Source: a virus
Lineage: Duplodnaviria > Caudoviricetes
IMG/VR virus record: IMGVR_UViG_3300010234_000013
Coordinates: 1 to 59,356 of that record
Length of the DNA stretch: 59,356 bases
Reading direction: 5' to 3' (one strand)
Shown here: positions 1-59,356 of the stretch, piece after piece
Layout: each line of letters opens with the position of its first letter
Numbering within the stretch: position 1 is the first letter of the stretch
The notes under the pieces: model-generated
The model's database searches: none
The model's input: only the letters and a program-made list of their open reading frames with translations
What the model was told of the DNA's origin: nothing
Program-made: the position numbers and the translations under genes

Positions 1-213
1 CGGGGCAAGGGTCAACGGATGATGTCACAATCAAAAATGATGCTGATGCAACGGTGGTTAATATACCAACAGGCACAACAAATGTAAATGTGGTAGGGAA
101 TATATCCGTTGGTGGAACGGTAGACGGAATAGATGTTGCAACAGATGTAGCAGCGAACACGGCAAAAGTAAGTGCAGATGGAAGTATTACTTCTCATAGT
201 GATGTGGTATCGG
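1..213 (+). repeat. Imperfect terminal direct repeat, copy 1 (copy 2 at 59144-59356)
   Basis: First 55 nt identical; 13 substitutions counted by eye over 213 nt. Confidence 0.95.
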
Positions 214-3200
214 CAACCAATACAGATAAATTTGTATTGGCAGCAAACGGAACAACAGGATATGTAGGAAGGGCATTGGTGGAGGCTGATATATCAGACT
301 TATCGCATACCGCCAACACGGATGCTCAAGATTTAACTTTAGTTGGAAATACTCTTGCAGTATCAGGCGATCCAAACACGGATGTTGACGTATCAACAGC
401 AACGGCAGTATCGGCAAACACATCAAAGGTTACAGAATCAACAACGGTTTCGGATGCTGCAAATGGATTAGACATTACCTTATCCACTTATGATGTATCA
501 GTTGCACTAGACCCAAGTGAAGCAGCAGGGCAAGCACCAGACTTGGCAGATATATTAATAGTTGAAGACGTAACCGATGGTGGTATTCATAGTGCTACAT
601 TAACACAGATACAAACCCTTATAGATACAGACACACAATTATCAGATGCAGCGGTCAAAACTGCTTATGAAAATAATGCCAATACTAACGAGTTTGACGA
701 TACAGAACAAACCAAGTTAGCAGGAATTGAAACGGCAGCAGACGTAACCGATGAAGCCAATGTAGTATCATCATTAGATGGTGCAACTTTAACGGGCGTA
801 ACGGTAGCAGGAACAGACAAAGTACTTGTGCAAGATGTTGATGATTCTGACAACATTAAAACGGTAACGGCTCAAAGTATAGCTGATTTAAGTACAAGTG
901 GAATTGCTAATGTTGTAGAAGATGCAACGCCTCAATTGGGTGGAATGTTGGACGTAAATGGTAATGCTATTGGAGATGGAACATTAGAACTTGTTAAGTT
1001 TACCGAAACAGGATCAGCGGTCAATGAAGTAACTATAACAAATGCTGCAACGGCAGGTGATCCAAGTATAACAGCAAGTGGAGATGATGCGAATATAGAC
1101 TTAACACTTGATGCAAAGGGTACAGGAGTCGTTAAAACACTATCAAGCGACTTGGACATAACAGGCAATATAGTTGTTAGCGGAACAGTGGATGGTATAG
1201 ATATAGCAACAGACGTAGCAGCCAACACAGCAAAAACAAGTAATGCAAATCACACAGGCGATGTAACAGGGGCCACAGCATTAACTATAGCAGTCGATGC
1301 AGTAGATATACCTATGTTATCAGCAACAGGAACAGCGGATGGCACGACATATTTAAGAGGTGATGGCACATGGACGGTTCCAAGCGGATCAGGTGATGTT
1401 TCTAAAGTAGGCACCCCTGTAAATAATCAGGTGGGTGTTTGGACGGGAGATGGCACCTTGGAAGGTGATGCTAGTTTAGTTTTTGATGGCACAAGTTTGG
1501 GTATAGGGTCTACGGCATCAACAGCAACGGTGGAAATCAAAAAAGACAGCTTAGATCATGGCTTAATAGTTACGGGTCATGATGATGTTACTTTGTTGAA
1601 GGTGGATAGTGTGGGCAAGGTGGGAATAGGGGTGGCAGGATCGCCAAATGCACCCCTAGAAGTAATAGGGCTTACTGGCCTTAATGTTGGGATATTCCAA
1701 TCAACAGGGGCAACAGGAAGATTGGTTGTCTCCACAATTGGCGATACAACAAATAATAATTCGGGTATTGATCTTAATTCTGCTGATGGTTCTAGGTATT
1801 ATTCTATTGCATCATATCAAGGGAATAGTGGATACCAAGATTTTACGTTTTTTAATAACCAAACTAATAATGCATCAATGTTTATTAATGGTGATGATGA
1901 TAATGTGGGAATAAACACCACCACCCCTACAGCCCAACTAGAAATCAAAAAAGACAGCCTGGATCATGGGCTAATGGTTACAGGGCATGACGATGTCACT
2001 TTGTTGAAGGTGGATAGTGTTGGAAAGGTAACTGTGACTAAGGAGTTATCATTTGATAAAGCCACCGCTCCGTTTAAAACATCTTTTGAAGCAGGGGGCA
2101 GTGGAAATGCTAATTTTATTGCAAATCATGATAGTGATGTGCAAGATAATTCAGCATATAGTTCTTGGATGTTACAATTGGCCCCAAATAAAGCAATAGA
2201 CGATATGTCTATTAAAAGGAAAACGGCAGGAGGTGGAGGTTTTACTACATTTTTTATGATTGATAGTTCTGGGAATGCAGGAATAGGAACTACCACATCA
2301 CCTACAGCCCAACTAGAAATCAAAAAAGACAGTCTAGATCACGGGCTAATCGTAACGGGCCACGACGATGCTACCTTGTTTAAGGTGGATAGTGTGGGGA
2401 AGGTGGGAATAGGAACAAACTCACCTAATCAATTATTCCATGTAAATGGTGGTAACTTTAAAGTGGAGGGTGCATCAGGTGATAATATGATCAATGAGTT
2501 TTGGGGGGATTTGGCTGTATTTCTTAGAACTTATGATTCGGGTGGTGGTACTGATACAAAGTATATTGATATAATAAATGATGGTGGTGCCTTTTATTTG
2601 AGGCAACTAAATGACAACCAAACTGTAAAAAATGATGCATTAACAATTGCTACAGATGGCGATTTGGGCATAGGCACGTCTTCACCTACAGCAGAACTAG
2701 ACATTTTAACTACAGCACTTAACGATCACCTTAATATGAAAGCAACAGCCGAACAGGGAAGGTCTACTATAATTATTACCTCTGATACTTCAAAATATGC
2801 AAGAACGGTATTTAAACAAGGCGACAAATATCGTCGCGAGATAGGTTTTGGAGACGAAGACACAGGGAGCTTACATATTGGGAATAATAGCATGGCAGCT
2901 AAGTATTTAACACTAGATAGTTCAGGTAATATGGGTGTTGGCACTACATCTCCCTCTGAATTATTAGACGTAAACGGTAACGGAAGGTTCAGAAGTATAG
3001 GTTCTGGAACATCGTCAGGAGCACTACATTATGAATCAGATGGAACACTAACCACCAACACTTCAGATAGAAGATTGAAAAGAAACATATCTGAAATCGA
3101 CAGCACAGACGCCCTTGATAAACTATTACAACTAAAACCAAGTAGATTTAAATGGAAAGAGTCCTCTAAAATAATGAGAGACTCTTCATTAATAAATAAT

Positions 3201-3590
3201 CTAAAGTCGGAATATGCAGAAATTGAATCATCACTTGCTACAGGGTCTGGAAGTTTACTGCCCTCTGAAATACAAGAACTAGAAGCAAGAAAAGAAGAAG
3301 TATTAAAAGAAGCTGATTCATATAGATCAACTAATAAAAAAAGGTTTGCAAATTCTGATCGTTGGAATTTAGGATTCATAGCACAAGATGTAGCAGAAGT
3401 GATCCCACAGGCAGTAGGCAGAAGTGAGAATGGTATGCTATTCCTGCATAGCGATCAATTTCACGCTATCACAATATCAGCCATGAAAGAACAGCAAAGA
3501 CAAATAGAAGAACTAAAAGCAGAAAATGCATCACAACAGATATTAATAGGGCAGATGTTATTAAGATTAGATGCATTGGAAAATCCTTAA
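1..3590 (+). CDS. C-terminal part of giant tail fibre/adhesin with peptidase S74 intramolecular chaperone (frame open at window start)
   Basis: VGIGT-type repeats, three internal repeats, SDRRLKRNI cleavage motif, LGFIAQDV and a terminal coiled coil typical of S74; same reading frame and sequence as the ORF running off the window end. Confidence 0.85.
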   Translation, partial: GQGSTDDVTIKNDADATVVNIPTGTTNVNVVGNISVGGTVDGIDVATDVAANTAKVSADGSITSHSDVVSATNTDKFVLAANGTTGYVGRALVEADISDLSHTANTDAQDLTLVGNTLAVSGDPNTDVDVSTATAVSANTSKVTESTTVSDAANGLDITLSTYDVSVALDPSEAAGQAPDLADILIVEDVTDGGIHSATLTQIQTLIDTDTQLSDAAVKTAYENNANTNEFDDTEQTKLAGIETAADVTDEANVVSSLDGATLTGVTVAGTDKVLVQDVDDSDNIKTVTAQSIADLSTSGIANVVEDATPQLGGMLDVNGNAIGDGTLELVKFTETGSAVNEVTITNAATAGDPSITASGDDANIDLTLDAKGTGVVKTLSSDLDITGNIVVSGTVDGIDIATDVAANTAKTSNANHTGDVTGATALTIAVDAVDIPMLSATGTADGTTYLRGDGTWTVPSGSGDVSKVGTPVNNQVGVWTGDGTLEGDASLVFDGTSLGIGSTASTATVEIKKDSLDHGLIVTGHDDVTLLKVDSVGKVGIGVAGSPNAPLEVIGLTGLNVGIFQSTGATGRLVVSTIGDTTNNNSGIDLNSADGSRYYSIASYQGNSGYQDFTFFNNQTNNASMFINGDDDNVGINTTTPTAQLEIKKDSLDHGLMVTGHDDVTLLKVDSVGKVTVTKELSFDKATAPFKTSFEAGGSGNANFIANHDSDVQDNSAYSSWMLQLAPNKAIDDMSIKRKTAGGGGFTTFFMIDSSGNAGIGTTTSPTAQLEIKKDSLDHGLIVTGHDDATLFKVDSVGKVGIGTNSPNQLFHVNGGNFKVEGASGDNMINEFWGDLAVFLRTYDSGGGTDTKYIDIINDGGAFYLRQLNDNQTVKNDALTIATDGDLGIGTSSPTAELDILTTALNDHLNMKATAEQGRSTIIITSDTSKYARTVFKQGDKYRREIGFGDEDTGSLHIGNNSMAAKYLTLDSSGNMGVGTTSPSELLDVNGNGRFRSIGSGTSSGALHYESDGTLTTNTSDRRLKRNISEIDSTDALDKLLQLKPSRFKWKESSKIMRDSSLINNLKSEYAEIESSLATGSGSLLPSEIQELEARKEEVLKEADSYRSTNKKRFANSDRWNLGFIAQDVAEVIPQAVGRSENGMLFLHSDQFHAITISAMKEQQRQIEELKAENASQQILIGQMLLRLDALENP
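1533..2410 (+). repeat. Three intragenic ~90-nt repeats (EIKKDSLDHGLxVTGHDDxTLxKVDSVGKV)
   Basis: Copies start at about 1533, 1941 and 2316, separated by unrelated spacer modules. Confidence 0.9.
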
Positions 3591-3687
3591 CAAGAAAAAT
3601 TCGGCAACAATTAACTTTAGGAATTCAACACAATTTAAACCACCCTTTATAAAATTTAATTTAATGGTTATAAAGGCAATCGAATTC

Positions 3688-3924
3688 ATGGAAGATATTA
3701 AAGTTATAATTGGAATAATTGGAACATTTTTGGTTACTGGTGCTGGTTTAATTTTTGGTGCAGGAAAAGTATTTCAAAGGATGAAAAGTAATGATGAAAG
3801 AATTGGTTCTGTTGAAAAAGATGTAGACGAACTAAAAGGTGACGTTGCTACAATGAAAGGTCAATTTTCACAAATACTGCTCAACCAGGAAACCATGTTG
3901 GATTTTCTAAAAGATGGAAAGTAA
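3688..3924 (+). CDS. Small membrane protein with coiled coil (holin/XhlA-like)
   Basis: N-terminal TM IIGIIGTFLVTGAGLIFGAG then coiled coil; start of lysis region. Confidence 0.5.
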   Translation: MEDIKVIIGIIGTFLVTGAGLIFGAGKVFQRMKSNDERIGSVEKDVDELKGDVATMKGQFSQILLNQETMLDFLKDGK

Positions 3925-4005
3925 CATGAATGATTATTAATTAGACATATATTAAAAATAATATTAATATCTTAGAAGTATACTAATCAAACGTTATAAA
4001 CCAAT

Positions 4006-4266
4006 GTGATGAATAAAAAGCATTATTTCGTTGATCTGTATTTTATAATTGTTATATCATTTTCGTTGGTCTGTTTATCATTTGCGGCTCAGAATAGTCA
4101 ACCGGACATCATATTTAATCACTTTCCGGATGGTACAACACAAATGCATTTTAACAAGCACAGTTTAACGGAAGAAGAGGCATTGGATGTGATGACAAGA
4201 TTTATAATAAAGCGTGAAAGAGGTGATCTATTTGACGAAGAAAAGAAGAAAATAAAGAATTTTTAA
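4006..4266 (+). CDS. Hypothetical protein with signal peptide or N-terminal TM
   Basis: Hydrophobic N-terminus ending SFAAQ. Confidence 0.5.
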   Translation: MMNKKHYFVDLYFIIVISFSLVCLSFAAQNSQPDIIFNHFPDGTTQMHFNKHSLTEEEALDVMTRFIIKRERGDLFDEEKKKIKNF

Positions 4267-4287
4267 CTTATCAAAATAAAGTAAATT

Positions 4288-4626
4288 ATGTTACAAGGAT
4301 TTTCAATTGCAGCAATAGCAGTCTTATTGTTTATTGGGTACAAAATTTGGGATGACTCAAGAATTAAAACAAAAGAACTTAGTCCAGGAGCCGAAAAAGC
4401 AAAGGCGTTGTTGACACAAATTTCGGTAATACTTGCATCAATAGTGTCGCTGAATCTATTTGGTCAAATACCATTTGTTGATAAATTGGTTTCTAGTTTG
4501 GGGTTTGTGGTTGATAGTTTTGACAATGCCTATGATCTTGGTGTTCAAATAATTGCTGTAGTTATTTCTTTTTACAAAATATGGAAACCAGCAGTTGAGG
4601 TCGAATTAAAGGCTAAAGGTCTTTAG
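4288..4626 (+). CDS. Putative holin
   Basis: 2-3 hydrophobic segments, directly upstream of endolysin. Confidence 0.55.
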   Translation: MLQGFSIAAIAVLLFIGYKIWDDSRIKTKELSPGAEKAKALLTQISVILASIVSLNLFGQIPFVDKLVSSLGFVVDSFDNAYDLGVQIIAVVISFYKIWKPAVEVELKAKGL

Positions 4627-4642
4627 TATACGGTTATAACGT

Positions 4643-5170
4643 ATGGCGTCATTACAGCAGCAAATATACACTGTAGCCAAGTCTTTTAATGGGTTACGGG
4701 AAATAAAAGGACATCTAGATAATGGCTTTTTGGTAAGTATAATTGTTTGGGCCTTACCTTTTGTAAGAGGACAAAATGATATAGATGGAAGATATGCTTA
4801 TTGTGGCATATTTTTAGGCCATATCTGCAAATCTATAGGCAAAGAACATCTATTACCAAATAAGTTTTATCGTGCGAGGAATTGGCTTAATGTGGGTATT
4901 AATATAAACCTGGAAGAAGCGCAGAAAGGCGACTTTGTAATCTTTTACAGGGGCCACAAAGATGGAAGGATGGGCCATGTATCATTATATGAATCACATG
5001 ACAAGGAATTCATAAGATGTTTTGGTGCAAATCAAAGCAATGCAATAAGAAGTAGCAATTATAGAAAGGATAGATTGTTAGGTGTAAGGCGAATGGTAGA
5101 TGTAAAGTCTTATTTCCTGCCTGATAGCAAATCCAGTGTATTGAGTAAGCTATTAAAGAAGTATATATGA
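4643..5170 (+). CDS. Endolysin, NlpC/P60-CHAP superfamily (TIGR02594-like)
   Basis: Catalytic Cys in YCGIF, ARNWL, GDFVIF, GHV, GANQSN. Confidence 0.8.
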   Translation: MASLQQQIYTVAKSFNGLREIKGHLDNGFLVSIIVWALPFVRGQNDIDGRYAYCGIFLGHICKSIGKEHLLPNKFYRARNWLNVGININLEEAQKGDFVIFYRGHKDGRMGHVSLYESHDKEFIRCFGANQSNAIRSSNYRKDRLLGVRRMVDVKSYFLPDSKSSVLSKLLKKYI

Positions 5171-13799: not shown

Positions 13800-13800
13800 A

Positions 13801-35379: not shown

Positions 35380-35396
35380 AAATTAAAAATAACATT

Positions 35397-35585: not shown

Positions 35586-35671
35586 ATGGGAATGGTATGG
35601 AGCATATTATTATTCGCCATTTTAATTGGCCTTTGTATTTGCTCCACTGCAACAATCTTCATAGATCAAAG

Positions 35672-36157: not shown

Positions 36158-36182
36158 GGCACTAATAAAAATAAAAATACCT

Positions 36183-36584: not shown

Positions 36585-36684
36585 AAGTATAAATTATGTT
36601 TTCAGGAGTATTAAAGCGATTTTTTACAAGAAGAAGAAACAGGACAAGTGCGAATATTGTTCCGTTACATTATCATTAGAAATT

Positions 36685-36724
36685 GGTAATAATCAAGAAC
36701 GATTGAATCTTCTTTTCATATTTG
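36685..36724 (+). promoter_or_regulatory. Late promoter motif
   Basis: GGTAATAAT at 36685, CATATTTG at 36717. Confidence 0.7.
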
Positions 36725-36766
36725 AATAGAATTCATTTTTTAATTAGCTAATTACAAATTACTTCT

Positions 36767-37207: not shown

Positions 37208-37241
37208 AGTTTTGCATTTCTAAACGGTTTTGGTTAGTAAT

Positions 37242-37276
37242 AAGAAGGGGGTTAGGGTAATCTCCTTCTTTTTTTA
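37242..37276 (+). terminator. Intrinsic terminator
   Basis: AAGAAGGGGG...TCTCCTTCTT followed by T-run. Confidence 0.7.
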
Positions 37277-37292
37277 TTTACAAACAACTATC

Positions 37293-41138: not shown

Positions 41139-41160
41139 AACATTACTGTAGACAACATCG

Positions 41161-42081
41161 ATGAAAATCATAATATTTATTGTTGTGTGTTCGTGGGGTC
41201 TTAAATCTCAGGAATGTCTATATCTTATTCCTCAAGGAATGGAAATTGGTAACAACAAAATATTATCAAAAGGTGCAAGTTCGCTAGAAGACAAGTGCAT
41301 AGAAATATACATTGAAACTGACTTGTTTACATACAATAACATAGGGTCTGTTATCGCAACAGAAACATGGATAAGAGATTGGTTTTCAGGCGTAAAAGAA
41401 TTGTATGCGAATGAAAGTATAGAAATAAGAATAAGCGATATACATGTAAAAACACAACCATCTTGGTCTGATAATTTAGTGGACATTGTTGAGATACTAA
41501 ATAAATTTGGGGAAGTAACACAAAACAATTATAGCGGTAGACTTGCACACTTTATTACACAAAGAAATTTGGGTGGTGGTGTTGCATGGTTAGGTACTTA
41601 TGATTGGGATTACGCTACAAGTAACGGGCAACATTTTGGCCCATATGCGGTTTCTGGAAATATGACTTTATCGTTTTCTGAATTTCCTAATTATTCATGG
41701 AATGTAAATGTATTTGCTCATGAAATGGGTCATAATTTGGGATCAAGCCACACTTTTGAATGCGTATGGAATGGAGGCGATAGAATAGATGATTGTTTTA
41801 TTAATAATCAATGCAATTTGATACAACCTATAGAATACAGCACGATAATGAGTTATTGTCATTTAACAGCACATGGGATAGATTTTAATTTAGGATTTGG
41901 CACACTTCCAGGTGGGCTAATAAGATCAAATGTAGCTTTATCGCAAAGGTTGTATTGCGAATGTGAAGCAGTTGTAATCGACGCTCCTGTTTCTGGTGAT
42001 ATTAAAGGATATACTTTTGAACTTAAGCCAGGTGCAGAACTGTTGCCAAATACTAATTTGATATTGTGTGATACAATATGA
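41161..42081 (+). CDS. Secreted metzincin (M12B/reprolysin-like) metallopeptidase
   Basis: HEMGHNLGSSH, Met-turn TIMSYC, GGVAW; short signal ending KS|Q. Confidence 0.88.
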   Translation: MKIIIFIVVCSWGLKSQECLYLIPQGMEIGNNKILSKGASSLEDKCIEIYIETDLFTYNNIGSVIATETWIRDWFSGVKELYANESIEIRISDIHVKTQPSWSDNLVDIVEILNKFGEVTQNNYSGRLAHFITQRNLGGGVAWLGTYDWDYATSNGQHFGPYAVSGNMTLSFSEFPNYSWNVNVFAHEMGHNLGSSHTFECVWNGGDRIDDCFINNQCNLIQPIEYSTIMSYCHLTAHGIDFNLGFGTLPGGLIRSNVALSQRLYCECEAVVIDAPVSGDIKGYTFELKPGAELLPNTNLILCDTI

Positions 42082-44398: not shown

Positions 44399-46339
44399 GT
44401 GTCTGTATACGAATTATTACAGTCTATTGAGAAGAATGATCCTGCTAAGATAGCGGATAGTCACTTATTAGAGCTATATGATAAGGTTGCTACACAAGCA
44501 ACCAGACATACCACAAGATCAAAGTTTGAGGCTTTGTATAATATAAGCCGACCAAACGAGGATAAGATATTTAAAGATTGGCGTGAAAGTAATATAAGGC
44601 ACATTACCAGTGCGCCAATCAATATGTTTTCTTCAATGGTGGTGCGTGTATTGCATCATTCATTCGTTGACATAAATAATCTAGTAGATGAAACCCAAAA
44701 GGAATATTTGAATGAAGTATATCTCAACAGATATAACTTTGATAATTTCAGATATGAGTATTTAATTCCGCTATCATTCAGGGATTGCAACGCTTTAGTT
44801 GTTGAGTTTCCTTTCAATCCAAGCAATCCAGATGTTCCATTAACCGCAACGGCTGAAGAAGGCGGTCTAAGGCAAAATGAAAGTCTTGCTACAGAAACAA
44901 AAGTCGTTTCTTCTTACAACATTACCCATTACTCACATGACAAGTTAATTTGGAAAGCAGGCCAAAAGGATGTTTCAATAGATCCGGAAAAAGTAAGGTA
45001 TGCACCCTATTACATTGGTGTTGACAAAGAAGCTTATTGGATTATAATTCCAAGACTAGAAGAAGGCGACATTGTCTATGATATAAAAGATTGGTATGCA
45101 CATGACAAAGACATACTACCTGTAACGGAAATCGCAGGAAGAACAACTACGCATACAGTAAAAGCGGATAAGACAAAAAACTTACTAAACAGAGAGCTTT
45201 TATACAAGGAGGCATTCACTTGGCAGGCTTACGAATATTTGGATCAGGCCATAATTGATTTCTCAAGTGATCAAGTGAATAGTATTCGCTTCATGTCGCC
45301 ATTACTTGCTTTGGATGCTGAAATAGAATGTCCTACTTGTAATGGAACCGGATTTGTAGAAACCAATTCATATTTATCCTATGGTAAAGAAATTACTTGT
45401 GGAGATTGTAAGGGTACAAGAAAGATCAACAATGTAGGTCAATTCAGTACCTTAAAAATAAGAAGATCCAATTCAGAATTTGACAAGGCCGGAACTCCTG
45501 CAAGTTACATAACACCACCTACAGATACATTGAAATATGGTTTTGAAAGATGGCAGGAATTAATAAAAATGGCAGAACGCACATTATGCGTGGATCCATT
45601 AGAAAGCACAGGAAATGAAAGCGGAGTAGCTAAAGAATTAAGATTAGAGCCGAAAGGCGATCTAATGAAAGACATAGGCAAATCCTTCATCAATATGACC
45701 GAAGGAATACTTAATGTCAAAAGCACTTTAAGAACGGATAGCGAACCCGTATTGGTAAACATACCATTGCCATTAACTTATGAAACAAAGACGGTAGCGA
45801 TCCTTAAAATGGATGTAGAAACCGCTGCACTAGCTACAAGAAGAAGTAAGTTTTTGAAGCAAATAGAAGCAGAGTTCAGAGGCGATGAAATGATGATAAA
45901 GTCTTACAAATTGGCAATAGACTTTGCGCCATTGATGATTTACAATGATGAAGAAACGACAACGGCATTAGCTCAGGAAGCTTATAATGAAAAAGACATC
46001 ATAAGAAGGGATTTTGCATTGAGGGCTTATGAAGATATTCTTGCTGAAGACAAGAACAGCGAAAAGACATTCAAGGAATATAGAGAATTGGCTGAAACTT
46101 GGATGGTTGAGAATGGATTGTTTGATCATTTGGAGATGGCAGAAGAAGAGGAAGGTGAAGAAGCAGAAAAAACGATAGAAGAAGATGCATTACCTGAAGA
46201 TTTGGATGAATTAGAAGAAGTAATGACAGCGTTGTTAAATGAAGAAATAGATAGATCAAGAGCTATTGAATTAATAGTAATAATTGAAGACATGACAGAA
46301 GAGGAAGCAGAAGAATTGGTTGTGTCAACAGGATTATGA
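44399..46339 (+). CDS. Portal protein with inserted DnaJ-type zinc finger
   Basis: NESGVAKELR portal-like motif, size, acidic tail; CPTCNGTG...CGDCKGT. Confidence 0.75.
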   Translation: MSVYELLQSIEKNDPAKIADSHLLELYDKVATQATRHTTRSKFEALYNISRPNEDKIFKDWRESNIRHITSAPINMFSSMVVRVLHHSFVDINNLVDETQKEYLNEVYLNRYNFDNFRYEYLIPLSFRDCNALVVEFPFNPSNPDVPLTATAEEGGLRQNESLATETKVVSSYNITHYSHDKLIWKAGQKDVSIDPEKVRYAPYYIGVDKEAYWIIIPRLEEGDIVYDIKDWYAHDKDILPVTEIAGRTTTHTVKADKTKNLLNRELLYKEAFTWQAYEYLDQAIIDFSSDQVNSIRFMSPLLALDAEIECPTCNGTGFVETNSYLSYGKEITCGDCKGTRKINNVGQFSTLKIRRSNSEFDKAGTPASYITPPTDTLKYGFERWQELIKMAERTLCVDPLESTGNESGVAKELRLEPKGDLMKDIGKSFINMTEGILNVKSTLRTDSEPVLVNIPLPLTYETKTVAILKMDVETAALATRRSKFLKQIEAEFRGDEMMIKSYKLAIDFAPLMIYNDEETTTALAQEAYNEKDIIRRDFALRAYEDILAEDKNSEKTFKEYRELAETWMVENGLFDHLEMAEEEEGEEAEKTIEEDALPEDLDELEEVMTALLNEEIDRSRAIELIVIIEDMTEEEAEELVVSTGL

Positions 46340-46342: not shown

Positions 46343-46987
46343 ATGAAGAAGCAATGCAGAATAATAGCCGCGCATAAACGAAAAGGAAAGCCAGTTAAGC
46401 AGCATGTCAGATGCACCTCAGTAAAAAACACGCCTAAACAAACAAAAGAGAAAAGTAGTAGTAAAACATTTTCAAATTACGATGACGCTACAAGTCAATT
46501 TGATAGTTTTATGGATGGTAAAGATGACGCGATAGCATCTATAAACGAATACACAGATGGTAACTATTCTGAAATAAATAGTAGCTTAAGAAGATCAGGA
46601 AAGCTTGATAGTGGGAATGATGCTACAGTCAAAGGAATCGATGAAGTTTTTAAATCTAATCCACCCGTATTTGAAGGAACAACTCATAGAGCAATAGGGT
46701 TCACTGATGAAAACAAATTCAAATCTTTTGTGTCTAGTTTAGAAGGAGGTGATACATTTGTAGATAAAGGATATATGTCTTCATCTAATAATAAAAGAAT
46801 CACAGAAGATTTTGAACATACCTTTAGTGTAAGGTTTGAGATTAATAGCAAGAAAGGAATATCAATAAAGAATTTTTCAAATTTTCCGAAAGAAGAAGAA
46901 ATATTGTTCAATAGGGGATCAAAGTTTAATATAAACTCTGTTGAAAAAGATGGGACTAATGGTTATAAGGTATCTCTTTCTGATTAA
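46343..46987 (+). CDS. VIP2/C2-like (R-S-E) ADP-ribosyltransferase
   Basis: EYT..Y..IN..LR, THRA, GYMSSS, EEEILFNRGSKF. Confidence 0.88.
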   Translation: MKKQCRIIAAHKRKGKPVKQHVRCTSVKNTPKQTKEKSSSKTFSNYDDATSQFDSFMDGKDDAIASINEYTDGNYSEINSSLRRSGKLDSGNDATVKGIDEVFKSNPPVFEGTTHRAIGFTDENKFKSFVSSLEGGDTFVDKGYMSSSNNKRITEDFEHTFSVRFEINSKKGISIKNFSNFPKEEEILFNRGSKFNINSVEKDGTNGYKVSLSD

Positions 46988-47744
46988 GCACATCTTCAAT
47001 GATTTCTATCCTAGTTATATGCTTAAGTAGAGATTCTTCAATACCGTAATGAAGACCTGCTACAGCACCAGCTACACAAGCATTTGTGTCTGTGTCATAA
47101 CCATAAGAAACTGCTCTTTTAATGCAATCTAGAAAGTTATCTGTTTCTATAAAGCATTTTATAGCAATGTTCAAACTTCCTACTACATATCCTTGAGGGT
47201 CTAAGTTAGACTCTATAGAGTATTTTCTATCGCATATATTTTTCGCATCAACTTTATTTTCTCCTTCATCTATTAATAGCATATAATCTAAAAAGTATTT
47301 GCAACAATCTATAGGCACTTTATGCTGATGTGTAAGTCTAGATATATCTTCGATATACTCATAATCTTTATTTGCTTTAAAGTCTTCATATATCGCACAT
47401 ATACGCATCAGGCTGCCATTCCCATTCATATGATCCTTATCAGTATCCGCGTCATTTGTTATAGCATCTCTTGTTGTAAGACCTACATCAAATACATCTC
47501 CATGCGAAGTGTAGTCGCTATATAAAAGCCAGTTGCGAAAATTCTGTTTTATATCTTCTATTGTATTCCCGTCTAATGTTGCGAGAATTAAAGATGTATC
47601 ATCACTCCAAGAACCTAAAGGTTGATTGTGAATCCCGTCTGAAGTGAAGGTTATATCTTTTTGCGGAGGCAAGAATTCGTAAGGTACACCAAGAACGTCA
47701 CCTAGTATGGCGCCATAAATGTGAGCATTTTTAGTCAGGGTCAT
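46956..47744 (-). CDS. ADP-ribosylglycohydrolase (DraG/ARH family)
   Basis: GDVLGVPYEF, WSDDT, GNGSLMR, LTH, DTDTNACVAG. Confidence 0.93.
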   Translation of the reverse strand: MTLTKNAHIYGAILGDVLGVPYEFLPPQKDITFTSDGIHNQPLGSWSDDTSLILATLDGNTIEDIKQNFRNWLLYSDYTSHGDVFDVGLTTRDAITNDADTDKDHMNGNGSLMRICAIYEDFKANKDYEYIEDISRLTHQHKVPIDCCKYFLDYMLLIDEGENKVDAKNICDRKYSIESNLDPQGYVVGSLNIAIKCFIETDNFLDCIKRAVSYGYDTDTNACVAGAVAGLHYGIEESLLKHITRIEIIEDVLNQKEIPYNH

Positions 47745-51435: not shown

Positions 51436-52548
51436 ATGCCTTTAACAGCAGGAACTAAGGCACCGCAATTTTGTCTAAATTCGCAAATATCGGTAGACAA
51501 TTTTGACACTGCGCCTTTAAAATTAAGACAAAAGACGGGTTTCCTAAATAAAGTATTATCGCCTGATAATAACGCAGATTGGAACCAAATCACAACTTCA
51601 CCTATTGGTGGAAAGGCTGCACCAGGTGGAACAAATACCGGACAAGCAGTTGAAACAACAATAGAATACAGAACGCCATATTGTGCAGGTGGAACCACTC
51701 CAGGTTCAGCTTCAGAAATATGTGCGGTTACTGGATCGAACACGGAAGAAAAAGGATATCTATATGTAGATGTAGATAAATTTGTAGAAAGAAGTTTTGA
51801 TGTAGACCTTGCGGATTTTGACGCAACATGTGAAGCTCCTAATGATCGAATTGCCGATCAGATAGCGAGAAAAGCATACGAGATGCGAAGAGAAATCAAT
51901 TCAGATGGAATCGACGATTATCATGGTGTGTTATCCGCTTATCCGGTTTCTGGATTAACTCCAACGGGCGCAAACCTTCAGGATATTAATGTAATATCTG
52001 ATGAAGGAAACATCATAAACGCAGGTTTCGCGAAAGCAAGAGGAACGTTTAGACATGCTCTTTGGGATGGTGGCGTTCAAATGGTTGGTGGAAATAGAAT
52101 GGGTACTTACTTTGATGTAAGAGCAATGCAAGGACTTTCACACAGAAGGGGCGCTGATGGAACTTTAGAAGATCCTTTTTCAAATACTGAATTTGCTTTT
52201 GATCTTGACCTTGATTCAAGAATTGGAACTTTAGAGTCTGCTTCAGATTCTTATGTTTTGGCTTGGGCCGATGGTGCTTTCGGAATGGTAGAATGGATGG
52301 AGAATACAGCATACAAGAATTATGTGTTTGAAGATCATATTAGAGATACTATAACAGTCGATGGAATGGAGTTTGATTATTTCGTTCACTTCGATAAGTG
52401 TACTACTCCAAAGTGGAGGGTAATGTTGAGAAAATATTACGGTTGGATGGCAATTCCTGATACTGCTTATTGCAACAACAACGGCTTGAGATTTATGTAT
52501 AAGTCAACAGCAGGTGCAATAACAAGTACACATTTAGATCCGGCTTAA
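51436..52548 (+). CDS. Putative major capsid protein
   Basis: 370 aa, after scaffold, own promoter and terminator. Confidence 0.7.
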   Translation: MPLTAGTKAPQFCLNSQISVDNFDTAPLKLRQKTGFLNKVLSPDNNADWNQITTSPIGGKAAPGGTNTGQAVETTIEYRTPYCAGGTTPGSASEICAVTGSNTEEKGYLYVDVDKFVERSFDVDLADFDATCEAPNDRIADQIARKAYEMRREINSDGIDDYHGVLSAYPVSGLTPTGANLQDINVISDEGNIINAGFAKARGTFRHALWDGGVQMVGGNRMGTYFDVRAMQGLSHRRGADGTLEDPFSNTEFAFDLDLDSRIGTLESASDSYVLAWADGAFGMVEWMENTAYKNYVFEDHIRDTITVDGMEFDYFVHFDKCTTPKWRVMLRKYYGWMAIPDTAYCNNNGLRFMYKSTAGAITSTHLDPA

Positions 52549-53862: not shown

Positions 53863-54339
53863 ATGCCTACATTTACAGGAAGTATAGAACAAGTATTTGC
53901 CAAAATGGAAAGGGGTTTCGATTGTCTGGAAGAGAATTTGGATGAAATCGCATTGCCTGTAATGAAGGCTTTGGAAGGTGCAATGACGCAAAGAATACAC
54001 AATGAAGGTAAAAAATCCGATGGTTCTTCGATAGGTACATATTCAGCCAGGTATGCCAAGTATAGACAATCTAAGGGCCGACAAACTGGATATGTTGACT
54101 TAGAAGATACATCAACGCTTAGAAGTGCATTACAGACAGGAGAAGTAAATGGAAAGCCTGTATTGATGTTGAATCCAAATGTAGGGTACGAAAAGAGCAG
54201 CAAGAGGGCCAAAGAAATAGCAGGATACCATGAAGAACATTATGGTGAATTGTATAAGCCAACGAACGAGGAAATGGATGAGGTAAAAGAAATAGTAAAG
54301 CTACAACTCAAGAAACAGGTAAAGGAGTGTTTTAGGTAA
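53863..54339 (+). CDS. Neck/tail completion protein
   Basis: RIH.EG...YS..YAKYR..KGRQ..VDL..T..L motif. Confidence 0.65.
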   Translation: MPTFTGSIEQVFAKMERGFDCLEENLDEIALPVMKALEGAMTQRIHNEGKKSDGSSIGTYSARYAKYRQSKGRQTGYVDLEDTSTLRSALQTGEVNGKPVLMLNPNVGYEKSSKRAKEIAGYHEEHYGELYKPTNEEMDEVKEIVKLQLKKQVKECFR

Positions 54340-55182: not shown

Positions 55183-55596
55183 ATGGGAATATTTGAAATA
55201 ACGGAAATGGTAATGTCCTATCACTTCTTAAGTTATCTGGTGGTGGTTTTGATAAGTGCATTTGTTTCGTCAAGGATAGCTAAGATGCTAGATTTTGGAA
55301 TGAACCCCTATCATTTGCTTTGGTTTGTCAAAAAGTTCCTTGTAGGAATATTAAGCAACCAATACATTGAGTATAGGTATGACTTAACATATGATCAGAA
55401 TTATGAAGCAATGTCAGATGCCTATGAAAGCATATCCAAAGATTATTTTGTGTTGCGCCTTATCAATTGCGTGTACTGCATGACCGTATGGGTTAGCATA
55501 ATTGTAACAATAGCATTATTAATACTTACACAACTACATTGTTCATTATTGGTAATTGTGCCAATAGTAGCATTCTATATGACCGAAAAATTATGA
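55183..55596 (+). CDS. Membrane protein with CxxCxxxW motif (DUF1360-like)
   Basis: LINCVYCMTVWVS flanked by TM helices. Confidence 0.6.
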   Translation: MGIFEITEMVMSYHFLSYLVVVLISAFVSSRIAKMLDFGMNPYHLLWFVKKFLVGILSNQYIEYRYDLTYDQNYEAMSDAYESISKDYFVLRLINCVYCMTVWVSIIVTIALLILTQLHCSLLVIVPIVAFYMTEKL

Positions 55597-55943
55597 TGAT
55601 AAGGAAGTTAAACGAATGTACATTTGCGGTGAATTTAGAAGCATCTAGTTGTGATATTGTAGACATTCCATTCGTTGCTACGGAAACAAAAGTTTATTAC
55701 ATAAGATTTAAGATAAACGGCATCAATAGGATATTTCCATTATTCGGAAAAGTAGGCAACAACCTTGCAATTTTGATAACGGATTTCCCTAAAAACAGGG
55801 AAGTAATAATAGAGGTTATGGAGGATGACGAAGTAGTAACTGATACTGGATTACCGCGTGTATTTGGTAACAATCGAAATTATAGCGCGGATGACGATAT
55901 TTTTGCTTACATAACTAATAATACAAATCTAGATCATCCATAA
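55593..55943 (+). CDS. Hypothetical virion protein
   Basis: Coupled ORF. Confidence 0.5.
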   Translation: MMIRKLNECTFAVNLEASSCDIVDIPFVATETKVYYIRFKINGINRIFPLFGKVGNNLAILITDFPKNREVIIEVMEDDEVVTDTGLPRVFGNNRNYSADDDIFAYITNNTNLDHP

Positions 55944-56368
55944 TGGCATATCCTTATAATATACCAGACGTTTCAGGTGTTCTTACAAGTGCCGAATGGG
56001 TACAAAATCAAGATACCATAAACAATATTGCCACCCTATTAGAGGCTTTAGAATCAACGGATTCTTTATTTACGAGGTATAAGGAAGAATTTGTAACAAG
56101 TGCCGATGAATCCATTACAATTACTGTTAATTCAGGCACATTGCCATCGAATTTGGATGATATAGATGTATTTATGGATGGAGCCGAAATATCCAGGCTT
56201 GCAGGTGAACTTCGTTGGTCTGTTTCGGGTTCTGTCATAACTTTTTTAGAATATACAATAGACGGTACATTGGTTGGGAACTTTTCACATACCGGATATG
56301 TATTTGTTAAGTTCTTTTCACCATTTGATTTTACAATTGTTGCACCATTAGAAGTAGTATGCGGATAA
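55943..56368 (+). CDS. Putative fibre-associated protein
   Basis: IDVFMDG...WSVSGSVITF pattern; overlaps fibre start. Confidence 0.5.
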   Translation: MAYPYNIPDVSGVLTSAEWVQNQDTINNIATLLEALESTDSLFTRYKEEFVTSADESITITVNSGTLPSNLDDIDVFMDGAEISRLAGELRWSVSGSVITFLEYTIDGTLVGNFSHTGYVFVKFFSPFDFTIVAPLEVVCG

Positions 56369-59356
56369 AGATTATTTTAATTGCTTTAATTTCTTTTGTA
56401 TCGTTAAGCCTATCTTCACAAATAAGGCTTGATCCTACTTACAGAATTAAATTAGCGGACACATCGGATTATATTTTGCTTTCTGATACTTTAGGAAGGT
56501 TCAATATTGTATTGAATCCTGATGTATCACTTGATACTTCTTATGTGGTTGGCGATTCTGTCTTATTGGTAACTAATAAGTATGGAGTTGCATTTGATAC
56601 AAGTTACATTGATATAAGTAGTTTTGGTACAGGTGCAATTAATCAAATTGTGTCGGATACAGCGACTGTATTAAGGGCCGAATTCGCAGCAGCAGATGTT
56701 GTTGTTACAAGTGCATTGCAAACCGAAATAGGTGATACCTCTGCCCTATTGAGAGGATTAATAACAACGGCACAGGACAGCGCGAATACAGCACTAACAC
56801 AAATAGATGTATTGCAAACAAACGATGCTGCTGATACCGATCAAGATCCAACAAATGAATACAATACTTCGGTAGGATTGTCGGGAACCAATTTGCAAGT
56901 CATAGATGGTGGTGGTACAAAGCAAACCGATTTAGACGGAACGTTTGCAACAGACGCAGATGTAACTACAGAAATAGGTGATACTTCAGCGGTTTTACGG
57001 GCTGAATATGTTGCAAGTGACGCTGCTGATTTAGATAAGTCGGCAACCAACGAACTAGATTCAATGCTTTATGGTGGAACAAATGTAGTAGACGGAACCG
57101 ATATACAGCCATTAGTGCAAATCGAAATTGGCGATACTGCAACGGTATTAAGGGCCGAAAGTGTGGCTTTGGATGCTTTGGATTTAGACAAATCGGCAAC
57201 AAACGAACATCAAGATTTAAGTTATAATGCAAGTAGCCGTGAAGTTGAAATAACAAATGGAACGAATGCGACTATAATAGAAGCAATAGCAAGTGGTAAT
57301 AGTGGACTTTTGACAGGATCAGACAAAGCTAAAATAGACGGAATAGAAAGCGGTGCAACGGCAGATCAAATTGCAAGTGAGGTTACATTAACACCCAATG
57401 GAGATATTGCAGCTACAGATGTGCAAGCAGGAATCGTTGAAGTGAGAGATGATACTGATACCAAGTTAACGGGGAAATCAGATACGGGTCATGCACATGC
57501 AACTTCTGATATAACAAGTGGAACTTTAGCGGATGCAAGAGTAGCAGAAAGCAATGTAACACAACACGAAGCAGCGTTGACAATTACGGAATCTCAAATA
57601 TCAGATTTAGCACATACGGCCAATACGGACACACAAATTGATTCAATAACCTTTACCGATTCGCAAGTCTTCATTTGGGATGGTGGATCAAAAAAAGATA
57701 GTGCCGACATTAGCACATTAACTTTAACCGAATCTAATATTTCTGATCTTTCACATACAACAAACGCAGCCGATTTGGTTTCGGGTTTATTGGCAGATGC
57801 AAGGGTTCAGGAAAGTAATGTGACACAACATGAAGCAGCACTAACCGTAACGGAAAGTCAAATTTCTGATCTTTCACATACAGTTGACACAGATACACAA
57901 ATTGATAGTGTCACTTTTACGGATTCACAAGTGTTTATTTGGGATGGTGGAGCGAAAAAGGATAGTGCCGATTTGAATACATTGACCTTAACAGAGTCTA
58001 ATATATCTGATCTTTCGCATACAACGGATACCAATACATTAGGGGCTGATGGAGATAAAGGAGATATAACAGTTGGCGGTACAGGAACAACATTAGACAT
58101 AGATAATGCTGCTGTTGATATTGCAGAATTAGCAGCAACAGGAACGCCTGATAATACAACATTTTTACGTGGTGATAATACATGGTCAACTCCTGCTGGA
58201 TCAGGTGATGTTTCCAAAGTAGGCACACCAGTAAATGATCAGATTGGCGTATGGACAGGTGATGGAACATTAGAAGGTGATGCGAATTTGACTTGGGATG
58301 GCAGCGAATTATTAATGACAGGGTCACAGGATTTAATACATGTATCAGCAGCAAATGATGATCATGCACTAGAACTAGACGTGGATGCAGCAGGATTTGG
58401 TGATGTGAAAGCTGTTGATATTAATTATACAACAGGGGCAGTATCAGCAGGGGAGGAAGAGGCTGTAATACTTACCGACATAAATCAAATTAGTGCAACG
58501 GGGGGGACTTTGGTAGCACATGAGGTACTAGCTACAGATGGATCAGCAGATGCAATATACGCACAAAAAGCAGGGGCGTTAGTTGGGCCTATAACACAGT
58601 CTTCTGGGGTTTTCTCTAATCCAACTACAGGAACTAACAATACAACAGCAACGGATGTAGCGGCAATGATTGATGGATCAACAGGAACAAGTACAACCAT
58701 ATTTGTAAACGATAATGATTATATATTAATAGGTGCAGCAGCAGAATTCACAGAAATAGAATTTATATTAGAAACCCCTGTTGGTTCTCCTGGTATAACT
58801 CCAACATTCGGATATTCTACAGCAGGAGCGCATCAGTTTACATCATTTTCTCCAATAGATGGCACAAATGGATTTAGGAATACAGGAGTGATATCATGGG
58901 AGTCATCCGATCTTACATCTCACACCACGAATGATAATACAGGAACATATGACATCCTGATAACTAGGACACATAATAGTAAGGGTAGTGCATCCCTTTA
59001 CTATGCAAAAACGGCTGCTACAGTGAAATATTCATGGAATAAGGATGGAGTGGTCACAATTAATACCGTAGAACCTATGGGCGATGTATCGGCAGCGGAT
59101 AATGCTGCTGTAGGGTACACAGCAACAGAAGGTATAATAATAACGGGGCAAGGGTCAACGGATGATGTCACAATCAAAAATGATGCTGATGCAACGGTAG
59201 TAAATATACCAACAGGCACAACTAATGTAAATGTGGTAGGGAATATATCCGTTGGTGGAACGGTAGATGGAATAGATGTTGCAACAGATGTAGCAGCTAA
59301 CACAGCAAAGGTAAGTGCAGATGGAAGTGTTACCTCCCACAGTGATGTAGTATCAG
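56359..59356 (+). CDS. N-terminal ~1000 aa of giant tail fibre/adhesin with signal peptide (absent from ORF track; runs off the window end)
   Basis: ATG 56359 MRIKIILIALISFVSLSLSS|QIRL; repeats EIGDTxAxLR, ESNVTQHEAALT, FLRGDxTW, GDVSKVGTPV; in frame with 59143 ACG GGG CAA that matches window start. Confidence 0.85.
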   Translation, partial: MRIKIILIALISFVSLSLSSQIRLDPTYRIKLADTSDYILLSDTLGRFNIVLNPDVSLDTSYVVGDSVLLVTNKYGVAFDTSYIDISSFGTGAINQIVSDTATVLRAEFAAADVVVTSALQTEIGDTSALLRGLITTAQDSANTALTQIDVLQTNDAADTDQDPTNEYNTSVGLSGTNLQVIDGGGTKQTDLDGTFATDADVTTEIGDTSAVLRAEYVASDAADLDKSATNELDSMLYGGTNVVDGTDIQPLVQIEIGDTATVLRAESVALDALDLDKSATNEHQDLSYNASSREVEITNGTNATIIEAIASGNSGLLTGSDKAKIDGIESGATADQIASEVTLTPNGDIAATDVQAGIVEVRDDTDTKLTGKSDTGHAHATSDITSGTLADARVAESNVTQHEAALTITESQISDLAHTANTDTQIDSITFTDSQVFIWDGGSKKDSADISTLTLTESNISDLSHTTNAADLVSGLLADARVQESNVTQHEAALTVTESQISDLSHTVDTDTQIDSVTFTDSQVFIWDGGAKKDSADLNTLTLTESNISDLSHTTDTNTLGADGDKGDITVGGTGTTLDIDNAAVDIAELAATGTPDNTTFLRGDNTWSTPAGSGDVSKVGTPVNDQIGVWTGDGTLEGDANLTWDGSELLMTGSQDLIHVSAANDDHALELDVDAAGFGDVKAVDINYTTGAVSAGEEEAVILTDINQISATGGTLVAHEVLATDGSADAIYAQKAGALVGPITQSSGVFSNPTTGTNNTTATDVAAMIDGSTGTSTTIFVNDNDYILIGAAAEFTEIEFILETPVGSPGITPTFGYSTAGAHQFTSFSPIDGTNGFRNTGVISWESSDLTSHTTNDNTGTYDILITRTHNSKGSASLYYAKTAATVKYSWNKDGVVTINTVEPMGDVSAADNAAVGYTATEGIIITGQGSTDDVTIKNDADATVVNIPTGTTNVNVVGNISVGGTVDGIDVATDVAANTAKVSADGSVTSHSDVVS
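59144..59356 (+). repeat. Imperfect terminal direct repeat, copy 2
   Basis: About 94% identical to 1-213. Confidence 0.95.

Follow-up and report, generated by a model that had tools for sequence, protein, structure and literature searches.

Textbook accounts place the assembly of tailed phages wholly in the cytoplasm. The locus described here raises the question of what becomes of a tail fibre whose gene opens with a cleavable-looking signal peptide, and how such a protein could end up on a virion. The gene begins near the right-hand end of the window, by which we mean the whole 59,356-nt stretch of tailed-phage DNA that was analysed. The original prediction had offered two fates for its product, either trimerization in the periplasm followed by docking on the virion at lysis, or a role as a host surface adhesin. 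Export of the fibre, which both fates share, is well supported. Between the two, we lean towards the virion because of the position of the gene and because the fibre lacks the N-terminal domain of a related cellular family.

Results

The reading frame of the fibre begins MRIKIILIALISFVSLSLSS, followed by Q. Its ATG is the first start to follow the in-frame stop at 56326, and the end of the preceding gene reaches 10 nt into the frame (ATGCGGATAA). As no other ATG occurs among the first 235 codons (a TTG at codon 40 is the next candidate), a true start downstream of the hydrophobic segment is unlikely. The public gene call has the identical 999-aa sequence, letter for letter, so the earlier remark that the frame was missing from the gene track was not confirmed. 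The leader has all the hallmarks of a Sec-dependent type-I signal peptide, namely a positive n-region (R2 and K4), an h-region without charge whose 14 residues (I5-L18) lie within the usual ~7-15, and small residues at -1/-3 (S at -1 and S or L at -3, by choice among adjacent Ser sites). Signal peptidase I is predicted to cut after Ser20 (TCA, 56416-56418), and codon 21 is CAA, so that the predicted mature N-terminus reads QIRLDPTYRIK, in agreement with the signal peptide and Q originally noticed. There is no Cys (no lipobox) and no RR (no twin arginine) in residues 1-40. Gln at +1, the Q-rule, is described in PMC10653852 as exclusive to Bacteroidetes Sec/SPase I substrates.

Leaders were called by a simple rule made for this analysis, not by SignalP. 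By this rule 10 of the 59 ORFs of the phage are signal-peptide-like, seven of them with Q at +1 against a background of 2.8% of residues, and none of 146 control segments beginning at an internal Met was called. Taken together, the classic leader anatomy, the Gln at +1 and the recurrence of both on the closest relatives and in the fibre modules of two other lineages make export of the fibre well supported.

Table 1. Positions in the window of the fibre gene, its parts and its neighbours
Feature	Position	Strand	Remark
Upstream 141-aa ORF without signal peptide	55943..56368	+	Candidate virion-side adaptor, weak lead
Fibre, N-terminal 999 codons	56359..59355	+	Open at contig 3' end
Predicted signal peptide, codons 1-20	56359..56418	+	MRIK / IILIALISFVSLSL / SS, closing in SLSS
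Gln codon CAA, +1 of predicted mature protein	56419..56421	+	Fits Bacteroidota Q-rule
Two 236-nt direct repeats, 77% identity	57526..58025	+	Within shaft
Contig end	59144..59356	+	Aligns to 1-213, same reading frame
Contig start	1..213	+	Counterpart of 59144-59356
Fibre, C-terminal 1195 codons	3..3590	+	Open at 5' end; tail-fibre PHROGs; ends in S74
Three 124-nt direct repeats, 71-77% identity	1498..2404	+	Encode recurring EIKKDSLDHGL module
SDRRLK, fits SDxxxK catalytic Ser/Lys motif	3063..3080	+	Ser codon 3063-3065
S74 intramolecular chaperone, 175 aa	3063..3587	+	Expected release after trimerization
Three small membrane or leader-bearing ORFs	3571-3924, 4006-4266, 4288-4626	+	Lysis-type region
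Cell-wall hydrolase, leaderless	4643-5170	+	Lysis-type region 3571..5170

The fibre frame runs off the end of the contig, whose last 213 nt match its beginning at 94% identity. The first 55 nt of this overlap are identical and the rest carries 13 mismatches, with one amino-acid change in ~70 and the same codon phase. Because this match preserves the reading frame, the frame 3-3590 is most likely the continuation of the fibre beyond 59355, giving ~2,120 aa when joined. The record is classed as linear with a CheckV completeness estimate of 57%, and a 72-nt segment similar to the overlap recurs at 1163-1234; this recurrence and the inexact match make the copy number at the junction uncertain. The need to join the gene across the contig ends, together with the completeness estimate, counts against docking at lysis.

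The frame 3-3590 has 927 relatives at E<=0.001 and matches the tail-fibre PHROG families 9942 (5e-15), 18345, 1980 and 33119. PF13884 matches its residues 1021-1056 (59.8 bits against a cut-off of 22; 3.2e-16), and SDxxxK is the catalytic Ser/Lys motif of S74 according to PMC10769870. The S, D and K are invariant in our alignment A3, and the S74 region matches the tail fibre in PDB 8jov (E 8e-5), the SDxRLK stretch included. In an intact relative of 1933 aa (P0002), leader, Q and S74 lie on a single chain. The S74 end claimed for the gene lies outside the coordinates first given for it, and both this end and the length of more than 2100 aa depend on the join.

Searches with the N-terminal part of the fibre were largely empty. 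Residues 1-150 have no true homologue among 1.84 billion representatives (phmmer; one match, a junk repeat), residues 1-140 none among longer proteins, and residues 21-140 nothing above chance in the Atlas feature and structure search; residues 1-250 found one locus in viral contigs, matching residues 159-196 only. A docking domain therefore cannot be named, which we count against docking on the virion. Farther along, the middle region is similar to annotated tail fibres of phages, and tblastn of the 999-codon part against phages gave nine records, seven of them Synechococcus phage tail-fibre genes, at 5-17% query coverage each. A candidate motif common to the mature N-terminus and other fibres, Y.IK.A....Y.L.S, is a lead only (best match L018 6052-8604, E 0.0098; P0093, E 0.18; ~150 N-termini), and the regular-expression seed of a motif of leaderless fibres found three proteins only.

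The fibre contains no Cys in 2,194 residues and has no more O-glycosylation sequons than chance predicts (10 vs 12.1 and 8 vs 10.5 expected). Disulfide formation and sequon enrichment were accordingly rejected as reasons for exporting it. Two obvious benefits of periplasmic maturation are thus inapplicable to this fibre, and this too counts against docking after export. Secretion by the T9SS was rejected as well, with no CTD family among the NCBIfam or Pfam matches of the fibre.

The fibre gene closes the head/tail operon, overlap-coupled to the preceding gene, and the lysis genes come next. Late-operon position and sequence kinship to known fibres, the canonical marks of a tail fibre, are both found. 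No terminator was called ahead of the gene in a scan that, like the promoter scan, gave fewer sites than shuffles and is therefore uninformative; Bacteroidota promoters lie outside the coverage of the scan. The lysis-type region matches phrog_1259 at 1e-17, with weak Amidase_5 and NlpC/P60 matches, and since the endolysin has no leader, lysis would need a holin to open the inner membrane. Two genes before the fibre, the same operon encodes a DUF1360 membrane protein. The phage is temperate, with an integrase at 12654-13832, and seems to have a complete set of genes (integrase, recombination, replication, TerS/TerL, portal-sized protein, tail and lysis). It also encodes two leaderless receptor-binding candidates, 28397-30160 (587 aa) and 30872-33556 (894 aa), so that it need not depend on the leader-bearing fibre, another point against docking.

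The 141-aa protein encoded immediately upstream has one close homologue only (P0122, 87% identity). It has no Pfam or PHROG family and no relatives in viral contigs or by tblastn against phages, and P0122 has none in metagenome contigs. As a lead, its Atlas model resembles BppU_N and T7-tail-fibre-N-containing clusters (TM ~0.5). Its AF2 single-sequence model was too poor for use (pLDDT 43.5), and a complex model of three copies each of fibre residues 21-130 and of the 141-aa protein scored 0.00 with its controls unfolded, which speaks neither for nor against binding.

Judging from sequence comparison, the signal is not a one-off but recurs in the fibre genes of other such phages. Leader and Q stand at the start of five of the ten best relatives of the distal half (P0002, P0004, P0006, P0008 and P0009). 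In a 48-kb genome (G001; CheckV 97%), all four consecutive fibre-like genes, ~9.5 kb in fibre position, have both; one protein of this module has 31 sequons where 5.7 are expected (z 11.2), while 39 Cys occur in a protein of 624 aa. No leaderless gene of G001 matches a tail-fibre family. There is no integrase among the 45 of its ORFs scanned, and the leader trait thus appears not to be tied to lysogeny. In the lineage L015/L018, L018 has seven consecutive leader + Q genes, among them those for a collagen-like protein of 850 aa and for an S74 fibre. Leader and Gln are kept while the leader sequence drifts, both between P0002 and P0004 and between the S74 fibres of L015 and L018. An N-proximal domain of 150 aa is common to the leader-bearing P0008 and P0097 and the leaderless P0050, P0093 and P0077 (E 1e-12 to 1e-20), from which P0008 and P0097 look like ordinary fibres with a leader added. 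Most S74 fibres in viral contigs are nevertheless leaderless (11 of 14 with a visible N-terminus), which we count against docking of an exported fibre. A literature search of partial coverage returned no paper on Sec signal peptides on tailed-phage fibres.

Other leader-bearing proteins of the phage look truly exported by their sequences. Among them are an S8 subtilase of 1302 aa, which has PKD/Ig domains, and a metalloprotease of the reprolysin type, and seven genes for exported proteins other than the fibre form a cluster. The O-glycosylation sequon of the host phylum is enriched in ORFs 36183 (z 6.2), 34105 (z 4.6) and 36767 (z 3.1). Q-rule leaders and sequon-rich exported proteins point, indirectly, to a Bacteroidota-type host, and eight of the ten genome loci with the nearest S74 regions are Bacteroidota MAGs. 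The capsid-candidate protein had no match in viral contigs or in 401 sampled Bacteroidota genomes, the latter result being uninformative.

Discussion

Our tentative answer, to which we give slightly less than an even chance, is that the gene encodes an exported tail fibre of a temperate Bacteroidota phage that matures in the periplasm and docks on the virion at lysis. The proposal starts from what is read directly in the DNA, namely the leader with its Gln, the S74 motif, the place of the gene and the presence of leaders on related fibres. In its favour we count the leader anatomy at the only plausible start, the Gln at +1, the other exported-looking proteins of the phage, the leaders with Q on diverged relatives and in the G001 and L018 modules, the virion-type gene context, the domain that leader-bearing and leaderless fibres share, the absence of the N-terminal motif of the cellular family, and the leaderless endolysin. 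The fibre would be made as a pre-protein and exported unfolded via Sec, signal peptidase I would cleave it after Ser20, and the new N-terminal Gln would be cyclized to pyroglutamate by a periplasmic glutaminyl cyclase of the host. Chains of ~2,100 residues would then trimerize in the periplasm under the control of the C-terminal S74 chaperone, which would cleave itself off at the serine of SDRRLK. Heads and tails would meanwhile be assembled in the cytoplasm, apart from the fibres, and the finished fibres would meet the particles only when the inner membrane has been opened by the holin, or else at lysis. Docking would occur by the mature N-terminus, possibly on the leaderless 141-aa protein from the upstream ORF.

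The same idea may extend beyond this phage. It is possible, though we rate it below an even chance, that a set of Bacteroidota tailed phages follows a two-compartment assembly, in which the receptor-binding apparatus passes through Sec, matures in the periplasm and is added after the holin has opened the inner membrane. Such an apparatus would comprise S74 fibres, collagen-like fibres and Cys-rich and sequon-rich accessory proteins, and its maturation would include pyroglutamate capping, together with O-glycans and disulfides on some of the proteins.

A different fate is that the trimeric S74 fibre is exported and never joins a virion, staying in or on the envelope of the infected cell or lysogen as an adhesin, a conversion factor or something else. 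It would then be a phage-borne counterpart of the Bdellovibrio MAT fibres and of a cellular Bacteroidota S74 family. We regard this idea as rather unlikely. Exported S74 fibres outside virions do exist, as MAT (PMC10769870) and as the cellular family, one locus of which lies in a plainly cellular context. With an integrase in the window phage, a surface protein expressed by the lysogen is conceivable; the cluster of seven other exported proteins and the leaderless receptor-binding candidates point the same way. However, the fibre gene is tied to the late structural operon by its overlap, with no terminator call ahead of it, and its product has no N-domain like that of the cellular family, nor could a relative of the MAT-type one be detected. 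With neither a T9SS C-terminal domain nor a lipobox, the fibre has no visible route across the outer membrane. Moreover, G001, in which no integrase was seen, gives ~9.5 of its 48 kb to four such genes and has no leaderless tail-fibre-family match.

Docking at lysis also has to be weighed against readings in which the leader does not act as a cleaved signal. It is improbable, in our estimate, that the leader stays uncleaved as an inner-membrane anchor or is bypassed late, in which case the fibre would be added to the tail from the cytoplasm and the Gln would be incidental. Cleavage is a prediction, the 14-residue stretch is at the long end for a signal peptide, the DUF1360 membrane protein is encoded nearby, and the fibre bears no sign of periplasmic chemistry. 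On the other hand, 14 residues are short for a membrane span, and small residues at -1/-3 followed by Gln fit a cleavage site. The retention of leader and Gln under drift is the pattern of a working signal peptide, and the Cys- or sequon-rich sister proteins of the fibre modules would make sense only outside the cytoplasm. We consider it very improbable that the whole case is an artefact, by a wrong start or a chimeric or fragmentary contig whose leader-bearing N-part and S74-bearing C-part are two genes. The linear record, its estimated completeness, the inexact end overlap and the similar 72-nt segment allow for it, but the overlap is in frame with a single amino-acid change, the gene content looks complete, no alternative ATG occurs for 235 codons, and P0002 has leader and S74 on one chain. 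Even as separate genes, the leader would still be on a 999-aa fibre-like protein.

Should periplasmic maturation of fibres hold for a whole group of Bacteroidota phages, completion of the virion would be tied to lysis, and phage receptor-binding proteins could bear host-type modifications such as pyroglutamate, Bacteroidota O-glycans and disulfides. The window fibre itself is a case where neither cysteines nor sequon enrichment accounts for export. Signal peptides have been used to sort 'cellular' from 'phage' fibre genes among DGR targets (PMC6199706), and would no longer be usable in this way. The question also bears on the annotation and engineering of phages for Bacteroidota.

Among known systems, the fibre is closest in form to the S74 fibres and spikes of phages, such as the K1F endosialidase and the L-shaped fibre pb1 of T5 (as cited in PMC10769870). 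It shares with them the long repetitive trimeric-type sequence, the PF13884 end with SDxxxK, a gene placed last in the structural operon, ahead of lysis, and matches to tail-fibre PHROGs and cyanophage fibres. In contrast to those proteins, which have a cytoplasmic anchor domain and no export signal, it has a Sec-type leader with Gln and an orphan N-terminal stretch of 150 residues. The MAT (mosaic adhesive trimer) fibres of Bdellovibrio bacteriovorus have an S74 subgroup, to which Bd3182 belongs, that combines a signal peptide, S74 self-cleavage and surface display, and all 21 MAT proteins have a conserved 130-aa N-domain after the signal peptide (Caulton et al. 2024, PMC10769870). The window fibre resembles them in its signal peptide, long trimeric-type fibre and predicted self-cleaving S74 chaperone, and gives a weak direct match to Bd2133 (PDB 8ond; E 0.0066 over 33 residues). 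However, MAT proteins are cell-encoded and surface-displayed, whereas the window gene is part of a phage record, with head/tail genes before it and lysis genes after it. The N-domain of MAT is beta-rich, and phmmer with residues 1-150 of the window fibre found no true relative of any kind.

Bacteroidota cells do encode exported S74 proteins, as first stated for this locus. PF13884 matches occur in 129 of 401 sampled Bacteroidota genomes, and of the 20 best loci 19 have a leader and then Gln by eye (by rule, 18 are signal-peptide-like and 16 have Gln at +1). This family shares with the window fibre the leader, the Gln and the S74 end, the S74 regions being 30-59% identical. The two differ in that 17 of the 20 cellular proteins examined keep an N-terminal domain whose mature N-terminus reads Q.P.GF.[FY]Q, a motif absent from the window fibre and from 11 leader-bearing fibre-module proteins of G001 and L018. 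They also differ in their neighbours, which are of phage type here and are housekeeping and gliding genes (MetRS, SIR2, PorP/SprF and SprB) at one cellular locus. Lom and Bor of lambda and the T5 lipoprotein Llp are exported proteins of tailed phages that, like the window fibre, bear signal peptides and have their genes within or beside the tail-fibre region. They are small outer-membrane proteins or lipoproteins of the host envelope, without fibre repeats or S74.

Results

The fibre gene starts at ATG 56359, the first start downstream of an in-frame stop at 56326, and no other ATG occurs in 235 codons; the next candidate start, a TTG at codon 40, would open a 108-nt gap if used. The ATG overlaps the stop codon of the upstream ORF, the usual mark of translational coupling in structural operons, and the same 999-aa product is present as a public gene call. 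The encoded protein begins with MRIKIILIALISFVSLSLSS, then Q. This leader lacks Cys and RR; it combines two positive charges with a stretch of 14 hydrophobic or small residues that bear no charge, and the residues at -1 and -3 are small. The first 150 residues had no relative in 1.84 billion representatives. Under our own signal-peptide rule (K or R, then an uncharged 8-residue window with mean hydropathy ≥2.0, then a small/x/small site), 10 of the 59 window ORFs were signal-peptide-like; of 146 control segments that began at an internal Met, none was. Gln, which accounts for 2.8% of residues, occupies +1 in seven of these ten, and by eye also in ORFs 4006 and 6540. As worded in PMC10653852, a Gln directly after the leader, which a periplasmic glutaminyl cyclase then converts to pyroglutamate, is a feature of most Sec/SPase I substrates “exclusively in the Bacteroidetes phylum” (the Q-rule). 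The fibre's leader, followed by Gln, therefore bears a mark of genuine export that is specific to this lineage.

The gene is the final one of the head/tail block and is open at the contig end after 999 codons. Positions 59144-59356 align with 1-213 (the first 55 nt identical, then 13 mismatches; one of about 70 encoded residues differs), and both copies share codon phase. The frame entering at position 3 has 1195 codons, matches tail-fibre PHROGs, and contains PF13884 (59.8 bits against a cut-off of 22). Its catalytic motif, SDRRLK at 3063-3080, fits the S74 consensus SDxxxK as given in PMC10769870, of which S, D, and K are invariant in our alignment of S74 regions. The simplest reading is that the genome would be circular or permuted, that assembly failed within a stretch of the fibre that is variable or repeated, and that the two frames form one gene of about 2,120 codons. 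Since a similar 72-nt segment also lies at 1163-1234, extra copies may be hidden at the break. Regardless of this join, the relative P0002 (1933 aa; 33% identity to the distal half over 680 residues, and much closer across the S74 end) carries leader, Gln, and S74 on one chain.

The window is the entire IMG/VR record of 59,356 bases, classed as linear with a CheckV estimate of 57%, and the virus is a temperate tailed phage that also encodes RecT-like and RecE-like proteins and a replication initiator.

Coordinates of the main features of the phage genome
Feature	Position	Strand	Remarks
Fibre, C part	3-3590	+	
Cell-wall hydrolase (endolysin)	4643-5170		leaderless; 3' of fibre
Small membrane proteins			3' of fibre
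S8 subtilase	5167-6201		leaderless; directly after cell-wall hydrolase
Integrase	12654-13832	-	
Terminase, small and large	23091-24974		
Tape-measure-like protein	26165-28396		
Leader-bearing gene run	33768-42081		seven co-directional genes, between tail-tip-like genes and portal-sized gene
Portal-sized protein	44399-46339		
ADP-ribosyltransferase-like ORF	46343-46987	+	PF03496, 1.8e-19; adjoins portal-sized gene
ADP-ribosylglycohydrolase ORF	46956-47744	-	phrog_6572, 1.7e-48; convergent with preceding ORF, overlap ~30 nt
Capsid candidate	51436-52548		no PHROG or Pfam match; no match in 401 Bacteroidota genomes
Tail protein	53863-54339		
DUF1360-type membrane protein	55183-55596		PF07098, 2.3e-5; strongly hydrophobic; in structural operon, two genes 5' of fibre
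Fibre, N part	56359-59355	+	

The module order across 23091-52548 is unusual, running from terminase through the tape-measure-like gene, large tail-tip-like genes, the exported-protein run, the portal-sized gene, and a scaffold-like gene to the capsid candidate. The two ADP-ribose-related ORFs may form a writer/eraser pair. In G001, another phage record, an S8 protease related to the leaderless subtilase of the window (locus L006, 18992-19849) comes after an amidase, and its position beside lysis genes is conserved between the two phages.

Of the seven members of the leader-bearing run, six carry Gln at +1 and the other a lipobox Cys. Among the products are a reprolysin-type M12B metalloprotease and an S8 subtilase of 1302 aa that also has PKD and Ig domains. 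O-glycosylation sequons were scored as D-(S/T)-(A/I/L/V/M/T), the Bacteroidota motif in the form stated in PMC8550257, against shuffles of each protein, and three small members were enriched (z 6.2, 4.6, and 3.1). The other Gln-marked proteins of the window, which form this run, are judged from sequence to be of the exported kind.

When residues 640-1195 of the C part were used as query, 927 relatives were found; 120 of these were listed, and a crude hydropathy filter picked out 31 of the listed ones. Leader plus Gln occurred in five of the ten best of the 927 (P0002, P0004, P0006, P0008, and P0009). P0006 sits on G001, a virus record of 48,247 bases, estimated to be 97% complete, that encodes terminase, portal, and primase/helicase, with no integrase among the 45 ORFs scanned. 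At BLASTP level, all that G001 has in common with the window is an S8 protease, a small exported protein, and the end of the fibre, so it represents a different phage lineage. Its four consecutive fibre-like genes (959, 1037, 624, and 538 aa) all have leader plus Gln, and two match collagen-like tail-fibre PHROGs at about 1e-40. The first, collagen-like (L006 1536-4415), contains 31 sequons where 5.7 would be expected (z 11.2), and 39 of the 624 residues of the third are Cys; such sequon excess and Cys richness make sense solely outside the cytoplasm. Between residues 80 and 140 of the first protein, many sequons belong to a periodic array of the form Y-x-Y-D-S/T-hydrophobic-Y; it may serve glycosylation, or it may be a repeat of structural origin that fits the motif by chance.

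The S74 alignment picked up 19 loci in a scan of viral contigs. The N-terminus is visible in 14: three have leader plus Gln (G001, L015, and L018) and 11 are leaderless with usual N-terminal domains. L018 carries seven consecutive leader-plus-Gln genes (3679-12391), two of which encode an S74 fibre of 617 aa and a collagen-like protein of 850 aa, and L015 carries five. Between orthologues (P0002 and P0004; the S74 fibres of L015 and L018) the leader sequence drifts, with shape and Gln kept. A 150-aa N-proximal domain is common to the leader-bearing P0008 and P0097 and the leaderless P0050, P0093, and P0077 (E 1e-12 to 1e-20). P0008 and P0097 are ordinary fibres with a leader added, and the leader is a property of a group, not of a single gene.

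That Bacteroidota cells encode exported S74 proteins, the background to the original prediction, is borne out by PF13884 matches in 129 of 401 sampled genomes. Among the best 20 loci from these 129, each from a different genome, our rule recognised a signal-peptide-like start in 18 and Gln at +1 in 16. Inspection by eye puts leader then Gln in 19, and 17 have the mature N-terminus Q.P.GF.[FY]Q. One such gene (L038, 7190-10519) has a cellular context, lying between MetRS, SIR2, a SPOR protein, PorP/SprF, and an SprB adhesin. A cellular S74 gene occupies the same spot, MetRS/SIR2 on one side and SPOR/PorP-SprF/SprB on the other, in L039 (6619-10498), where it is split into two overlapping frames; the two loci are from Bacteroidia MAGs of different families. 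In a Thiohalospira MAG (L033), a 5.8-kb contig binned to this gammaproteobacterium encodes an S74 protein whose leader is Bacteroidota-style and whose start is QVP.AF.YQ; the cause may be a binning error or gene transfer.

Discussion

We file the window fibre as a predicted S74 tail fibre with a Sec leader. Its leader and the established biology of the phylum make it quite probable that the protein would be exported, cut before Gln21, and capped with pyroglutamate. S74 trimerisation and self-cleavage require no cytoplasmic factor. The matured fibre would then dock onto particles built in the cytoplasm after holin has opened the inner membrane. We favour this whole chain, from export to docking, tentatively and at slightly under an even chance, because the fibre gene is coupled to the structural operon and lies in fibre position, 5' of the lysis genes; because the endolysin is leaderless, so that holin must open the membrane; and because a cellular anchoring domain is absent from the fibre and no leaderless G001 gene was seen to match a tail-fibre family. 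One candidate for the virion-side adaptor is the leaderless 141-aa protein whose gene lies immediately upstream; its Atlas model resembles BppU_N- and T7-fibre-N-containing clusters at a TM of only about 0.5, a lead at most.

Several observations count against this reading. Exported non-virion S74 fibres are common, the phage is temperate, and the window also encodes two leaderless candidates for tail-tip proteins (587 and 894 aa), all of which would suit a fibre of the host envelope that is not part of the virion. The fibre has 0 Cys in 2,194 residues, and in neither part do sequons exceed expectation (N part, 10 observed and 12.1 expected; C part, 8 observed and 10.5 expected), which leaves the benefit of export without explanation for this protein. 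The negative result is that cysteines and sequon enrichment are not general features of leader-bearing fibres.

Our literature search found no description of Sec leaders on tailed-phage fibres. PMC6199706 even counts a lack of signal peptides in favour of DGR targets having come from phages. Counts stated for cultured Bacteroidota phages are two and one signal peptides per phage for Bacteroides (PMC5723332); for two phages of Polaribacter, signal peptides are given for 1 gene out of 82 and for 0 out of 86 (PMC4615864). The window contributes a temperate case of a leader-bearing S74 fibre together with Q-rule statistics, alongside two further phage lineages with leader-bearing fibres and a contrast with the cellular S74 family. 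Neither the window fibre nor any of the 11 fibre-module proteins that bear a leader in G001 and L018 has the cellular N-terminus. For the exported cellular S74 proteins, a published parallel is the Bdellovibrio MAT family, which, as described in PMC10769870, combines a signal peptide, a conserved 130-aa N-domain, and a fibre with S74 in 13 of 21 members, and is displayed on the cell surface.
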